A stretch of 64,000 bases of DNA from an uncultured Chloroflexia bacterium (GTDB lineage: Bacteria > Chloroflexota > Chloroflexia > QHBQ01 > JADMIH01): assembly GCA_963797095.1 (NCBI GenBank), contig CAWCNY010000005.1, positions 288,001-352,000 on the forward strand, written 5' to 3'. Positions 3,101 through 26,124 of the stretch are shown in pieces. Position numbers and translations under genes: made by a program. The notes beneath the pieces were generated by a model that was not told the DNA's origin, searched no databases, and worked only from the letters and a program-made list of their open reading frames with translations. Positions within the stretch are counted from its first letter, which is position 1; every line of letters starts with the position of its first letter.

Positions 3101-4195
3101 ATGCTAGAAGACAAACTCAACTCAATAGAACAAAGATACAACCAGCTCGAACAAATGATGAGCGAGCCTGACGTTGCCACCGACCCCAGGCGCCTCATGG
3201 AGCTTGGCAAGGAGCGCGCCGACCTCACCGAGCTTGTAGACCTCTACCGGACCTACAGGGAAACCAATCGCCAGCTCACCGACACCGAGACCATGCTCTC
3301 CGAGGACGGCTCAGACCCTGAGCTTGCCGAGCTTGTGCGCGCCGAGATCGAAGACCTCAAAGCAAAGCGCGATACGCAGATGGACGACATCAAGCAGCTT
3401 CTCCTACCCAGAGACCCCAACGACGATAAGAGCGTCATCATCGAGATCAGGGCGGGCGCGGGCGGCGACGAAGCGGCACTCTTCGCCAATGAGCTTTACG
3501 GCATGTACGCCAAATACGCCGAAAAGCGCGGCTGGAAGACCGACATCCTCTCCAGCAACCCCAACGACATCGGTGGCATGAAAGAGATCATCTTCGAAGT
3601 CAAGGGCAAGGGCGCATACAGCAACTTCAAGTACGAAAGCGGCGTCCACCGAGTGCAGCGCGTCCCCGTCACCGAATCCCAGGGTCGTATCCACACCTCC
3701 ACCGCTACCGTCGCCGTCATGCCCGAAGCCGAAGAAGTAGACGTAGACATCCGCGACGAAGATATCAAGCTCGATGTCTACAGGTCGGGCGGCCATGGCG
3801 GCCAGAGCGTCAACACCACCAACTCAGCCGTCCGCATCACCCACCTCCCCACCGGCATAGTCGTCACCTGCCAGGACGAGCGCAGCCAGCTAAAGAACAA
3901 GCTCAAGGCCATGACCGTCCTCCGCACCCGCCTCTACGAAATGGAGCTGGAGCGCCGCCAGAAAGAGATGGGCGACGAGCGCCGCTCCCAGGTCGGCACA
4001 GGCGACCGCTCCGAAAAAATCCGCACCTACAACTTCCCCGATGACCGCGTTACCGACCACCGCATCAAGCGCACTGTTTCCAACGTACCGCGTGTCCTCG
4101 AAGGCGATCTCGACAACTTCATCGAAACCCTCCGTGTCACCGACGAGGCCGAGCGCCTCAAGCACGAAGGTCTCGATGGCTCCAACGGCAAGTAG
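3101..4195 (+). CDS. prfA: Peptide chain release factor 1
   Basis: GGQ motif, PVT tripeptide, YESGVHRVQRVP, IRTYNFP. Confidence 0.98.
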   Translation: MLEDKLNSIEQRYNQLEQMMSEPDVATDPRRLMELGKERADLTELVDLYRTYRETNRQLTDTETMLSEDGSDPELAELVRAEIEDLKAKRDTQMDDIKQLLLPRDPNDDKSVIIEIRAGAGGDEAALFANELYGMYAKYAEKRGWKTDILSSNPNDIGGMKEIIFEVKGKGAYSNFKYESGVHRVQRVPVTESQGRIHTSTATVAVMPEAEEVDVDIRDEDIKLDVYRSGGHGGQSVNTTNSAVRITHLPTGIVVTCQDERSQLKNKLKAMTVLRTRLYEMELERRQKEMGDERRSQVGTGDRSEKIRTYNFPDDRVTDHRIKRTVSNVPRVLEGDLDNFIETLRVTDEAERLKHEGLDGSNGK

Positions 4196-22297: not shown

Positions 22298-22396
22298 CAC
22301 AGTCTGATCATTGGGGAAAGCTGTCAAAGCGGCTGTCCATCTTAACCAAACAGGGACGCCTGCAAAACAAACGTCCCTTTATAGTATTCAGTTCTC

Positions 22397-22434
22397 TGGT
22401 CGGGGCGCCGCGATTCGAACGCGGGACCTCTTGA
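22397..22434 (-). tRNA. tRNA-Pro(GGG) 3' exon
   Basis: TCAAG AGGTC CCGCG TTCGAAT CGCGG CGCCCCG A CCA immediately after the intron 3' end (CCCTAC). Confidence 0.93.
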
Positions 22435-24906
22435 GTAGGGTAAAAGACCAGCTCTTGGCTTTTGGACCAAGAAACCAACCTCTGCCCTCCGAACCGGACG
22501 TGCGACTTTCATCGCATCCGGCTCTCCAAGAATCTCACTCTTCCAACTGATTAGCGTTGGCGCAGGTCGTATAACAGGTCCGCAAGCTTGATACTGTCGT
22601 ATTCTCCCCTGTGGACTTTTCCGTGACACGACTGGCATACAGGAACTTGCTTTCTGTTGAGAGCACGCATGATGGCTTTGAAGCCAATTGCCGGTTTACC
22701 GTCTGCCTTTCTGATGTGGCGAACGTGGCGCATAACCACCCCATCCGTCTCACCGCAGATTACGCAGGGGTATCCCAGCTTTGAGCGCGTTCTCATCCTC
22801 GTCGCCATCTGTATCAGGTCTGTAGGTTGGTCGCCGTTTGCAAAGGCGTACCTATCTACTTTCCAGTCCCGGTTGACGTAGAACTTGACCGTGCGGTCCT
22901 TCCTCCCGTCCTGGGCTTTGATTACAAACGTAAGCTCTCGCCCATGTTTGCGGTAGATGGAGGCCGAGGTTGCTTTGAGTTTCATACTCAACGTCTTTGC
23001 ACAAGACATTGATAAGACGAATTGGATTCTCGTCAGGCTTCCAAAATTGTCGGTGAACCTGTAGTAACTCTGTATCCCACGATTGATACCGCTGTACAGA
23101 CTTACTATTTGGTCCACGTCCAGGTTTGTCCAGCCTGCTTTGGCCGTTGGTTCCCCTTCTTTGGTACAGAACCCCCTGTCTGCAAGTTTCTCAACAATTC
23201 TCGCTATCGGGGCTTTCATGACCGTCTCCCAGCCAGTGGAGCACCTTTTGAAGGGCTTTCCCCACCTGTTGGTAGTGGTCACGATTTTCGGCTCTCCACC
23301 GTCGCCGGGGCCGATTTGAAGGAGCGTTCCGAGAAATGTAGCTTCTTCTTTCCTGGCTTGGGTGATCCGGGTTTTCTCCTCGCTGAGCGTCAGTTTTAGT
23401 TCCTGACTAAGGAAGCATTTGAGTTCTTCCTTTATCTCCACCGCGAGTGAGTGCGGGCCTTGAATTCCAATTAGCCAGTCATCGGCGTATCGCAGGTATT
23501 TTATCCGGATGAAGTTCGGGTCCGCCGGGTCAATAGCTGGGGTGGTTCTGATTTGCCTGGATAGCGTTTTGAACTCTAGACTTTGTCTGTCGCCCCGTTT
23601 CCGTAGAGTATCCCTACGTTCGACAAGGCTCCGGTACTTGGCATTTCGGCGTTTCGTCTCGCCCCTTTCGTACCTCACTCTTAGCTGTTCAACTCTCTGG
23701 TCTAGTTGGTCTAAGTAGATATCGGCTAAGATTGGGCTTACTATTCCGCCTTGTGGCGTTCCCGCAAGACTGTCTTTGCGCTCGTCCCGCATATCCATGT
23801 ATCCGGCTTTCAGTAGCTTTCGAATTAGGTTGATAAACCGTTCGTCCGCTATCTTCGTGCGCAGGATACTTTCCAGAACTCCGTGGTCTATCTCATCGAA
23901 GCAGGCCCTGATGTCCCCTTCAATTATCCAGTTTACCGCCGACCACCTGGTACGGAACTCTCGCAGCGCCGTATGGCAGCTGCGATTTCGTCTAAACCCA
24001 TGACTTGACTGGTGGAAGTACGGCCCTTGTGAGCTGTCGTAGATAGCTTCCAAAATCATTCGCATGACTTCTTGGACTATCTTGTCTCGTACTGACGGTA
24101 TTCCGAGTCTCCGCATCTTGCCGTTGGCTTTCGGTATAAGTACCGTTCGCACAGGTTTGAATTGAAAGGTCTCGTCACGCATCTGCCGGATTATTCTCTG
24201 GATTTCGTCCATTGAAAATCCATCGAGCGTTTCGCCGTCCGTTCCTGGGGTCATGTTTCCGGGCTTAGACTTGACTCTCTCGTAGGCCAGTACGTACAAG
24301 TCTTCCCTGTACATGAACCTATAGAGGTCTTTGTTTTGCCAGTCCCTGGTGCTATTCAGTTGTTCAAGTGCCTTCACTCTCTGGAAGGCCTGTTCATTAC
24401 TCATCCGAGTAAGCCCTCCTTTCGATGAAGTTAGATTCTCTGTGGCCCTTTCCCGTGTCTCACCCATTACGGTGAGTTTTTGAGTACTATGGCCACTCCG
24501 TAACCCTGGCCCTCACGGGCTTTAGGTCATCCCGAAGTTGCTTAGAAGTCTCGGTTCGTACTTAGGTGCCCATTTCGTTAGTATCCCGCTCCCTGCGGTC
24601 GTCCCCGGTAAGAGCGTTCGCCAGAACTGGGGTTCACTTCCGGCGATACCGGGCTTAGGCATCAACGTCACTGCCTAAGAGTCCTTGATTGACTGACCTA
24701 ACTTGGGTTCGAGTAGTATAACCCTCACCATATACGACCTGGCTGACTGTCCATCTCGATGGTGACGTTCCATCTCAAACAGCCTTTTGGCATCATGCTG
24801 CTGTCCCCTCTCCCTTTCGGGTTCAGGTAAGATGCTGCTTTAGTCACTTTCGCTCTAGTGACACCACACCTCCTGTGGCAGAAACTTCTAAACCACATCG
24901 GCGCAC
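22435..24906 (-). mobile_element. Group IIA intron (2472 nt) inserted in tRNA-Pro(GGG)
   Basis: 5' GTGCG; domain V GAGCCGGATGCGATGAAAGTCGCACGTCCGGTTC (22491-22524); domain VI with bulged A 7 nt from the AC end; EBS1/EBS2/delta match the exons. Confidence 0.95.
22551..24404 (-). CDS. ltrA: Group II intron RT/maturase with C-terminal HNH-like domain (LtrA-like)
   Basis: TPGTDG, IPKANG..RLGIP, GFR, GTPQG, YLRYADD, CxxC...CxxCH; AAAGGAGG RBS before MSNEQ. Confidence 0.93.
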   Translation of the reverse strand: MSNEQAFQRVKALEQLNSTRDWQNKDLYRFMYREDLYVLAYERVKSKPGNMTPGTDGETLDGFSMDEIQRIIRQMRDETFQFKPVRTVLIPKANGKMRRLGIPSVRDKIVQEVMRMILEAIYDSSQGPYFHQSSHGFRRNRSCHTALREFRTRWSAVNWIIEGDIRACFDEIDHGVLESILRTKIADERFINLIRKLLKAGYMDMRDERKDSLAGTPQGGIVSPILADIYLDQLDQRVEQLRVRYERGETKRRNAKYRSLVERRDTLRKRGDRQSLEFKTLSRQIRTTPAIDPADPNFIRIKYLRYADDWLIGIQGPHSLAVEIKEELKCFLSQELKLTLSEEKTRITQARKEEATFLGTLLQIGPGDGGEPKIVTTTNRWGKPFKRCSTGWETVMKAPIARIVEKLADRGFCTKEGEPTAKAGWTNLDVDQIVSLYSGINRGIQSYYRFTDNFGSLTRIQFVLSMSCAKTLSMKLKATSASIYRKHGRELTFVIKAQDGRKDRTVKFYVNRDWKVDRYAFANGDQPTDLIQMATRMRTRSKLGYPCVICGETDGVVMRHVRHIRKADGKPAIGFKAIMRALNRKQVPVCQSCHGKVHRGEYDSIKLADLLYDLRQR

Positions 24907-24945
24907 ACCCCATTCAAGTGCGCTACCGGGCTGCGCTACGCCCCG
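24907..24945 (-). tRNA. tRNA-Pro(GGG) 5' exon
   Basis: CGGGGCG TA GCGC AGCCCGGTA GCGC A CTTGA ATGGGGT directly followed by GTGCG; C1-G72 and A73 Pro identity elements after joining. Confidence 0.93.
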
Positions 24946-24977: not shown

Positions 24978-25006
24978 ATTATACCAGAACCGCCCCAACC
25001 CTGCAA
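24978..25006 (-). promoter_or_regulatory. Promoter of the intron-containing tRNA-Pro
   Basis: TTGCAG-17 bp-TATAAT, with TG just upstream of the -10. Confidence 0.7.
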
Positions 25007-25024
25007 ACCACCCCGACCCAAACA

Positions 25025-25190
25025 CCAGGGCGGACGCAAAGTCAGGCACGAACCCGCAATTATGGTCGCTGGAACCCTTTCCGAGAAAGTAGCTCTTGCC
25101 ATTGACGCCTAGCCGGACCTGGCAATATGCCGGTCACGGTTGCCCAACCAGCTAACTTCGCATTGACGCCTGACTTTGCATCCGCCCTGG
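25025..25190. mobile_element. 166-bp MITE with ISAs1-like CAGGGC termini
   Basis: 23-bp terminal inverted repeats CCAGGGCGGA(C/T)GCAAAGTCAGGC with one mismatch; no transposase ORF. Confidence 0.7.
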
Positions 25191-25293
25191 ACCCAAAACA
25201 AAAGAGGCACCCCAAACAAAGAGTGCCCCATGACTACCAACAAGCAACCAGGAACTTGGAACTTGGAACCCCAATCCGACTACCGACTACCAA

Positions 25294-26124
25294 CTACTCC
25301 CTCTCCACCGGAAACTGTATCTCCGTAACCCACTTCGACTGGTCCCCATTCCTCTTGTACTCCAGGTTCAACTCCCGACTTGGCCCCGCGATCTTATACC
25401 CCGACCGCTCAAGCCAGCTACCAATCGCCCCATAAGCCGCGCTCAGCGTCGAAAACGGCCCGTGATGCACCACGCTCGCCATATTCTCCACCCCGGGCAA
25501 CTCCTCGATCCTCACCCGCTCGCTATCCTTGATCCTGCTGTTAGTAGGGATCGATATCCCCACTTGCACATCATTAGGCTGCACCCCAGGGTCGCCGAAC
25601 CATAGCGCCGTGGGCGGACCGCTAATCTCCCCACCATTCCTCGCCACATGCTCCAGCACCTCGTCAAACAACCGGTCAAAAGTCACACCCACCACGTCCA
25701 TACTGGGCACAACATCGCGCACCATAGCCACGCGCACCGGCTCGACGCGCTTCACAACAACCTCATAGTCAGGCATCTTACCCTCCAATTCAATCTGCTC
25801 GATGCGGGCTTCAACCCGCGCCAATCTCTCCTTGATCTCATGCGCCTGCGCCTGAAGCTCGGCCCGCTTCACCTTCAACATCCCCCTGATCTCCTCCGTC
25901 GGAAGCTCATCGCCCAGCAATTGCCTTATCTGCTCCAACCACAGCCCCAACTCCTTCAAAGCCAGTATCCGGTGCAGCATCCCCAGTTGGTCGAACGAAT
26001 AATACCGGCACCCTGTCCACCGGTCCACGTCCGCAGGTCGCAGCAGCCCTACCTCGTCGTAATACCGCAACCCCGATACCGACACCTGCCCCAATCGCGC
26101 AAACTCTCCAATCTTCAGTCGCAT
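25294..26124 (-). CDS. MerR-family (BmrR-like) regulator with GyrI-like effector domain
   Basis: KIGEFARL..LRYYDEVGLL..RYY; C-terminal HHGPF..Y..WL..RE..TEIQFP. Confidence 0.92.
   Translation of the reverse strand: MRLKIGEFARLGQVSVSGLRYYDEVGLLRPADVDRWTGCRYYSFDQLGMLHRILALKELGLWLEQIRQLLGDELPTEEIRGMLKVKRAELQAQAHEIKERLARVEARIEQIELEGKMPDYEVVVKRVEPVRVAMVRDVVPSMDVVGVTFDRLFDEVLEHVARNGGEISGPPTALWFGDPGVQPNDVQVGISIPTNSRIKDSERVRIEELPGVENMASVVHHGPFSTLSAAYGAIGSWLERSGYKIAGPSRELNLEYKRNGDQSKWVTEIQFPVERE

Follow-up and report, generated by a model that had tools for sequence, protein, structure and literature searches.

The window considered here, a stretch of 64,000 nucleotides (nt) from an uncultured Chloroflexia bacterium (GCA_963797095.1, contig CAWCNY010000005.1, positions 288,001 to 352,000), carries on its minus strand a tRNA-Pro(GGG) gene (24945..22397) that is interrupted by a group II intron; its features are compiled in Table 1. 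The element is very probably a mobile LtrA-like IIA intron that homed into the sole tRNA-Pro(GGG) gene of its host, a soil bacterium, and that would grip the anticodon arm through the exon-binding sites EBS1 and EBS2 and the adjoining delta nucleotides, by a mechanism that we infer. Joined in silico, the exons yield a canonical 77-nt tRNA-Pro(GGG) with an encoded CCA (ARAGORN on the scripted joint), and the insertion point falls between tRNA positions 38 and 39, at the boundary of the anticodon loop and the 3′ strand of the anticodon stem. The 5′ exon ends in ...CTTGA-A-TGGGGT at 24907 (−), its last base being U38, and the 3′ exon starts with TCAAG at 22434 (−), tRNA position 39. In its split form this tRNA is invisible to ARAGORN and Rfam scans, and ARAGORN with introns allowed detected none of the split tRNAs of the intron family, which were identified by joining the exons with a script. 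The host genome (6.0 Mb in 8 contigs, 93% complete) has 71 tRNA genes, among which no second Pro(GGG) gene was found; the other proline tRNA genes are two for Pro(UGG) and two for Pro(CGG).

The intron opens with GTGCG at 24906 (−), in keeping with the group II hallmark 5′ GUGYG, and its domains V and VI match the Rfam family RF00029 end to end (model positions 1-77 of 77; 67.3 bits against a gathering cut-off of 40); no Rfam match to a group I intron was obtained in the window. Judged by its sequence, the element is a group II intron of the IIA, mitochondrial-like (LtrA-type) class, an assignment made because delta adjoins EBS1 and pairs with the 3′ exon, as in the IIA layout. It is present as a single full copy in the host genome, and domains V-VI of a second, different group II intron lie elsewhere in the same genome (G000:C4:422431-422541; L002 1460-1560, minus strand).

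The intron-encoded protein of 617 residues is specified by an intact open reading frame (ORF) whose start codon, ATG at 24404, is preceded by AGGAGG and is kept in the homologues; an alternative in-frame ATG upstream, at 24467, would give 638 residues. Profile matches comprise RVT_1 for the reverse transcriptase (RT), Intron_maturas2 for maturase domain X, and an AI2M-like HNH endonuclease. The best relative of solved structure is LtrA (E 6.9e-90 over residues 46-618), the next RTs scoring 1e-34 or weaker, and TIGR04416 is matched with 263 bits, under its equivalog cut-off of 300. Since the protein is LtrA-like, with RT, maturase, and HNH domains, an ordinary IIA mechanism is to be expected.

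Table 1. Coordinates of the split tRNA-Pro(GGG) gene and its intron (window numbering), and of tRNA genes carried inside related introns (numbering of the respective locus).
Feature	Position	Strand	Basis
Promoter-like site TTTGCA, 18 nt, TG-TATAAT; precedes the start of the tRNA by about 33 nt	24978..25007	minus	consensus scan only
tRNA-Pro(GGG) 5′ exon, tRNA positions 1-38	24907..24945	minus	fold of joined exons
Intron-binding site IBS2, CTTGA, exon −12..−8 (anticodon-stem 5′ strand, positions 27-31)	24914..24918	minus	pairing and covariation
Intron-binding site IBS1, TGGGGT, exon −6..−1 (U33, anticodon GGG, G37, U38)	24907..24912	minus	pairing and covariation
Group II intron, 2,472 nt, 5′ GTGCG ... 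CCCTAC 3′	22435..24906	minus	Rfam and boundary motifs
EBS2 hairpin AGTC-AATCAAG-GACT, with EBS2 TCAAG at 24688..24684	24680..24694	minus	minimum free energy fold and loop covariation
EBS1 hairpin, 11-nt terminal loop with delta TGA (24636..24634) and EBS1 ACCCCA (24633..24628)	24619..24645	minus	covariation-supported fold
Intron-encoded protein, 617 residues: RT (YADD), maturase domain X, HNH endonuclease	22551..24404	minus	ORF and profile matches
Domains V and VI with bulged branch-site region (last 92 nt)	22435..22526	minus	Rfam RF00029
tRNA-Pro(GGG) 3′ exon, positions 39-76 including CCA; delta′ TCA at 22434..22432	22397..22434	minus	fold of joined exons
Terminator-like hairpin and T-run, about 19 nt past the CCA end	22352..22378	minus	consensus scan only
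Inner tRNA gene, L029	2847-2923		
Inner tRNA gene, L030	2844-2920		
Inner tRNA gene, L129	3508-3595	minus	
Inner tRNA gene, L023	2361-2435		
Inner tRNA gene, L131	1327-1400	minus	
Inner tRNA gene, L132	782-856		
Inner tRNA gene, L133	779-852		

The split gene is bracketed by a promoter-like site (10/12 consensus matches, with an extended −10 TG) and a terminator-like hairpin (12 pairs, 6 of them G-C), both from a consensus scan only, and it forms one transcription unit in the window. Just upstream of the promoter-like site there is a 38-nt imperfect inverted repeat (25025-25190), 79% complementary, with arms 90 nt apart and an internal 16-nt direct repeat, and short tandem motifs occur at about 25250-25295.

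Exon-binding loops and their covariation with the exons

On the minus strand, the EBS1 hairpin consists of an 8-bp stem formed by CGCCGGAA (24645..24638) and TTCTGGCG (24626..24619), which closes the loop GTGAACCCCAG (24637..24627). The EBS2 hairpin has a stem of 4 bp (AGTC, 24694..24691, with GACT, 24683..24680), and its 7-nt loop AATCAAG (24690..24684) lies about 50 nt upstream of the EBS1 hairpin. A preliminary description of this sequence had identified ACCCCA as EBS1, TCAAG as EBS2, and TGA as delta, and its motif coordinates were all reproduced when the minus strand was read again. ACCCCA is complementary to exon positions −6..−1, TCAAG to −12..−8, and TGA to +1..+3, and all 14 pairs are Watson-Crick in the window (6/6 for EBS1 and 5/5 for EBS2). 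As IBS1 coincides with tRNA positions 33-38 and includes the anticodon G34-G36, the earlier proposal that the anticodon is itself part of the recognition sequence is borne out. The identity of EBS2 with the 3′ strand of the anticodon stem, to which attention had also been drawn, is correct but a trivial geometric result: because IBS2 is the 5′ strand of the same stem, the identity holds for any intron at the 38/39 site.

Both hairpins are obtained in the single-sequence minimum free energy fold of the window (z = −3.4). RNAalifold, applied to a 56-sequence alignment of the domain-I part, predicted 25 pairs, 24 of them with compensatory changes; by itself it did not predict the short EBS2 stem, which was added by hand and then counted. 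With this stem included, 90.9% of the cells were paired, compared with 66.6% in shuffled alignments (0/500 reached the observed value), and the fraction fell to 37-41% in a control in which the 3′ partners were slid. Helices 4 and 5 (16 bp), which make up the EBS1 hairpin, are 92-97% paired with compensatory changes at every pair, such that this hairpin is very well supported across the family. In the EBS2 stem, the outer two pairs are solid in the 56 homologues and helix 2 is 70.5% paired. Within the approximately 110 nt of domain I that were modelled, EBS1 and EBS2 reside in hairpin loops, as the preliminary description had expected.

The homologues used for covariation came from 15 reference-genome loci, 80 metagenome loci with proteins 57-94% identical to that of the window, and further loci from genome searches. 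Intron boundaries were set by nhmmer profiles of the 5′ 330 nt and of domains V-VI, which were used in place of a strict domain V regular expression that missed most loci. The 5′ exon was known for 67 introns, 58 of them non-redundant, and mismatched intron/exon combinations served as control. The loop homologous to EBS1 pairs 6/6 (G-U allowed) with its own exon positions −6..−1 in 40/58 introns against 177/3230 mismatched controls, and the EBS2 loop pairs 5/5 with its own positions −12..−8 in 32/58 introns against 272/3256. Because the loops covary with their own exons and the helices that flank them carry compensatory changes, the assignments of EBS1, EBS2, and delta can be made, and on this evidence ACCCCA and TCAAG are to be regarded as true exon-binding sites. 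A 5-mer match by itself is weak evidence for EBS2, other G-U-containing 5/5 matches to IBS2 being found at intron positions 206, 229, 372, and 633; the motif at intron positions 219-223 is singled out by the homology of its loop, not by the match.

For delta, the comparison covers 31 non-redundant introns in which EBS1 is clear and the 3′ exon is known. The base directly 5′ of EBS1 pairs with +1 in 28/31 (control 0.38) and the next base with +2 in 29/31 (control 0.61); the third base pairs with +3 in 4/31 (control 0.14). Of the delta TGA proposed earlier, the pairing with +1 and +2 stands and the length of 3 nt was overstated: judged by these alignments, delta is 2 nt long across the family, and the third pair of the window intron (T with A at +3) is private to it.

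The probable homing site and the tRNA-hosted family

The claim that the tRNA-Pro(GGG) gene represents a cognate homing site, rather than an ectopic insertion, found support in the complete Watson-Crick pairing, in diverged copies at the same position, and in empty alleles. Metagenome copies L040, L041, and L042, with proteins 94, 89, and 71% identical to that of the window, occupy the same site in tRNA-Pro(GGG). The intron itself was found at the Pro(GGG) site in 0/24 genomes of the same genus, and 21 of these 24 (20 genomes plus G015) have an uninterrupted tRNA-Pro(GGG) gene with adjacent exons; three of the 21 empty-site genomes are unpublished (G016, G021, and G022), and without them the count is 18/21. 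The target sequence is identical across the genus, and since the exon halves are 100% identical in most congeners the site is a conserved target. As far as sequence comparison goes, the pattern is that of a recent gain by homing, and the Pro(GGG) site is supported as the intron's own homing site. Contigs break exactly at the first base of the intron in L023, L028, L035, L095, and L100, and for the G015 intron the 5′ exon lies on a separate contig (L038); this points to repeats, or to samples in which filled and empty sites coexist.

Six other tRNA species have relatives of the window intron at this 38/39 junction: Gly(CCC) in the congener G015 (70% nucleotide identity), Lys(CTT) at metagenome locus L112, tRNA(CAT) in Massilia and Cupriavidus, Ser(TGA) in a second Massilia intron, Arg(CCT) in G574, and Val(GAC) in G630 and G686. 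The covariation of EBS1 with the anticodon that the preliminary description had proposed to look for among introns in other tRNAs is realized in these relatives. In each of the nine tRNA-hosted relatives that were examined, the homologous loop contains an EBS1 that is complementary to the host's own positions 33-38 at 6/6 Watson-Crick pairs, and EBS2, where readable, equals the 3′ stem strand; in the Arg(CCT) relative it copies even the T-T mismatch of the stem. Inspection by eye of the distal exons yielded no common protein-recognized motif, universal tRNA features being all that the hosts share. The 41-nt 5′ exons of the split tRNA(CAT) genes in Massilia (L029 2270-2310) and Cupriavidus (L030 1913-1953), which belong to different families, are identical; this may reflect horizontal transfer of the split gene in one piece.

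A quick maximum-likelihood tree of 92 proteins, searched without bootstrap and uncertain in its long branches, places the tRNA-hosted introns on deep branches of the subfamily. The window intron, L040, L041, L042, and the G015 intron, together with one copy whose host is unknown, make up a clade with 100% support in the Shimodaira-Hasegawa-like approximate likelihood-ratio test (SH-aLRT), and two large derived clades have protein genes or other group II introns as hosts. Among the 80 metagenome loci the exon is readable in 74, and 4/74 have a tRNA exon. Reference genomes seldom contain the subfamily: close homologues turned up in 4/400 other Chloroflexota and 0/300 other Burkholderiales sampled. 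Among the 62 metagenome relatives whose 5′ exon could be read, 23 appear to be nested in other group II introns, at two recurrent sites, one with the 5′ exon ...GCATG/A plus 7 nt (L047, L050, L054, L055, L058, L059, L081, and L087), the other with ...ATAGTA or ...GTAGTA (15 loci, for example L048, L052, and L060). Several nested loci have additional upstream domain-I profile matches, and in L055, L058, and L059 three intron 5′ ends follow one another within about 200 nt. In L031, a contig labelled as a metagenome-assembled genome of the Flavobacteriaceae, the 3′ exon resembles plastid or cyanobacterial petD and a tRNA-Ser(TGA) lies upstream (by eye); the contig probably stems from an algal plastid and was binned with bacterial DNA.

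A further feature of the family is that, in five of the seven host tRNA species, the intron of the relatives harbours an entire tRNA gene whose anticodon matches that of the host. These inner/outer pairs comprise CAT (Massilia and Cupriavidus), Ser(TGA), Gly(CCC), Arg(CCT), and Val(GAC), and no inner tRNA was found in the Pro(GGG) clade of the window or in the Lys(CTT) intron L112. Three kinds of placement occur, namely in a domain-I hairpin, before the ORF, and after it. The inner Gly, CAT, Ser, and Arg tRNAs have kept the anticodon loop and differ in the anticodon stem, so the carried tRNA matches EBS2 and delta poorly. On a more tentative reading, the carried gene would be a built-in replacement by which the invasion of an essential tRNA becomes tolerable. 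In L133 (G630:C9) the outer tRNA-Val(GAC), at about 650-709 and 3512-3550, looks decayed, with degenerate G18/G19 region and T-arm and an anticodon stem whose strands have lost their pairing; its inner counterpart, also tRNA-Val(GAC), is intact, which gives the impression that the carried gene has assumed its role.

Splicing, mobility, and rival explanations

Taken as a mobile IIA intron, the element would operate in the following manner. Its host gene would be transcribed from its own promoter into a precursor of exon 1, intron, and exon 2, in which the EBS2 loop of the short domain-I hairpin would pair with stem positions 27-31, the EBS1 terminal loop of the long domain-I hairpin with positions 33-38 including the anticodon, and delta, which comprises two or three bases immediately 5′ of EBS1, with positions 39-40 (and 41). 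Because EBS2 would hold the 5′ strand, delta the start of the 3′ strand, and EBS1 the bases U33-U38, the strands of the anticodon stem would be bound by the intron instead of each other, and the stem would presumably be open in the precursor. The encoded RT-maturase-endonuclease would assist folding, and branching at domain VI followed by exon ligation would give tRNA-Pro(GGG). The suggestion of the preliminary description that the stem re-forms after ligation and so helps to release the exons is plausible. The excised ribonucleoprotein could then reuse the same 13-14 bp to reverse-splice into intron-less tRNA-Pro(GGG) genes. The interpretation given in the preliminary description is largely right, yet it describes the normal IIA mechanism, and the pairing itself is textbook.

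Parts of the intron are also represented in RNA libraries. Portions of the window occur in twenty RNA runs from 11 studies, and contigs from four soil or rhizosphere RNA studies cover most of the intron with 95-100% identity, some being identical; of these contigs, one extends 35 nt beyond the 3′ junction and a second includes 24 nt of the 5′ exon. It is presence in RNA libraries that these contigs demonstrate, not splicing, and among them no attributable ligated-exon or lariat joint was found.

Several points weigh against the picture of an active homing intron. The basis on which we infer splicing and mobility of the window intron is indirect. The RNA data are assembled metatranscriptome contigs from libraries that may contain DNA, and the sole exon-exon joint among them (X7, depth 2, shorter side 25 nt, 3 extra letters) was rejected as splicing evidence; it is unassignable to the host organism because congeners carry identical uninterrupted exons. 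Ribozyme modelling covers about 110 nt of domain I plus domains V-VI, and across the family the EBS2 stem is weak at its inner two pairs. In the Pro(GGG) copy that has diverged furthest, L042, only 4/5 bases of the EBS2 loop pair with the copy's own exon, and a perfect complement of IBS2 is found just 5′ of the hairpin instead of in the loop. Furthermore, those other bacteria in which tRNA-Pro(UGG) decodes every CCN codon can dispense with tRNA-Pro(GGG). With two UGG and two CGG genes present, and UGG able to read CCN elsewhere, the host cell could tolerate an insertion that does not splice.

Some of these points could be accommodated by an inert insertion, in which the intron does not splice and tRNA-Pro(GGG) is a tolerated pseudogene, the other four proline tRNA genes of the host serving the CCN codons; the RNA data do not show splicing, and the decayed outer tRNA-Val of L133 illustrates that decay of the host gene does occur in the family. 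Such an explanation is nevertheless unlikely, given that the GTGCG boundary, the RF00029 match, and the stop-free ORF with its YADD and HNH motifs are all intact, that the exon pairs are complete and the joined tRNA is canonical, and that near-identical and 89-94% identical copies at the same site in independent metagenomes point to recent activity. Retention of the intron as a regulator, with splicing efficiency setting the supply of tRNA-Pro(GGG) and mobility being secondary, would be in line with a sole Pro(GGG) gene driven by a tRNA promoter and with the stable retention of organellar tRNA introns described in PMC3607583. It is highly improbable, however, considering that the intron is absent from 21/24 congeners and from almost every genome sampled, as would be the case for a mobile element gained recently and not for a conserved regulator. 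Least credible of all is the view that the complementarities arose by chance, or that the real exon-binding sites lie elsewhere in domain I, for instance with an EBS3 of the IIB/IIC type instead of delta. It is true that short motifs recur, as the additional matches to IBS2 in the intron and the displaced complement in L042 illustrate. This view is already largely refuted by the loop-specific covariation over 58 introns, by the covariation of delta adjoining EBS1, by the covariation-supported hairpin that presents EBS1, and by the relatives in six other tRNA species, each with the expected EBS1 in the homologous loop.

Known systems, plastid tRNA introns, and significance

With these alternatives weighed, the LtrA-like homing intron can be set beside known systems. 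The protein architecture is the same as that of Ll.LtrB/LtrA from Lactococcus lactis, a IIA intron of the mitochondrial-like class, and so is the layout of the RNA: in Ll.LtrB the EBS1 and EBS2 sequences reside in two domain-I loops, with delta directly 5′ of EBS1. Ll.LtrB sits in the relaxase gene of a conjugative element; in contrast, the window intron interrupts a tRNA gene of the chromosome and targets an RNA gene that is both structured and universally conserved.

Like the window intron, the streptophyte plastid introns in trnK(UUU), which contains matK, trnV(UAC), trnI(GAU), and trnA(UGC) are of IIA type and lie in tRNA genes. In broccoli, exon II of trnK, trnV, trnI, and trnA measures 35 bp in all four (PMC8870505, Table 3), and the 3′ exon in the window has the same length, 35 nt, plus CCA. 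Judged solely by such exon lengths, as given in this table, the plastid introns are probably located at the same 38/39 junction. The plastid MatK protein is described as having lost RT motifs 0-4 (PMC4424553). The window protein, in contrast, is not of the MatK type, in which the RT is degenerate and the endonuclease missing; it has a full RT and HNH, and its intron looks mobile. Against MatK_N, the window protein scores 25.2 bits, below the cut-off of 31.4, and the proteins of the subfamily show weak matches that span the whole profile (19-33.5 bits, L024 being above the cut-off), together with 87-105 bits for Intron_maturas2. Two other bacterial proteins of the mitochondrial-like type have no MatK_N match and 37-46 bits for Intron_maturas2. 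These profile scores hint at an affinity of the subfamily to MatK.

The plastid trnMe intron of florideophytes also resembles the family, as a group II intron with an RT/maturase ORF in the anticodon loop of a tRNA(CAU) gene, but differs in that it follows the third anticodon base (36/37 and not 38/39) and belongs to the cyanobacterial/plastid RT radiation, not to the LtrA-like one (PMC3607583, in the part available). The bacterial group I tRNA introns of cyanobacteria and of alpha- and beta-proteobacteria, which are self-splicing, likewise lie in tRNA anticodon loops (PMC4033280); they differ from the window intron in ribozyme class and site, and they are not retroelements. In the accessible portions of the literature, a 2014 review names group I introns as those of bacterial tRNA genes (PMC4033280), the group II introns of bacteria are said to reside mostly outside housekeeping genes, with tRNA mentioned only for plastid trnK (PMC4424553), and group II introns in tRNA genes are those of streptophyte plastids and the florideophyte trnMe (PMC3607583, PMC13578239). 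A literature search found no group II intron in a bacterial tRNA gene, with most subscription journals and the intron databases outside its coverage, which leaves absence unproven; with the same coverage, no description of a tRNA gene inside a group II intron was found.

What is unusual is the tRNA host gene, the presumably plastid-like site, and the hopping of the family between tRNA species, and not the pairing. As a tentative extension, which we consider possible but somewhat less than even in likelihood, the family may represent an undescribed bacterial lineage of LtrA-like IIA introns that uses the 38/39 tRNA junction as a portable homing platform, rewrites EBS1 and EBS2 between tRNA species, and carries a tRNA as replacement. 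Because the intron type matches, and probably the site as well, this lineage might even be a free-living counterpart or the source of the chloroplast trnK, trnV, trnI, and trnA introns.

Set beside the reviews (PMC4424553, PMC4033280), a IIA retroelement that seems to be active in a tRNA gene of a bacterium, at what is probably the chloroplast-type junction, would be of value in three respects. In the relatives, a selfish element would make good the harm it does by bringing along a second copy of its target, a strategy that may be new. The family would furthermore constitute a natural series in which the same protein scaffold has been retargeted between tRNA species by changes of the EBS alone, and it would offer a tractable bacterial model for the origin and tolerance of plastid-type tRNA introns.

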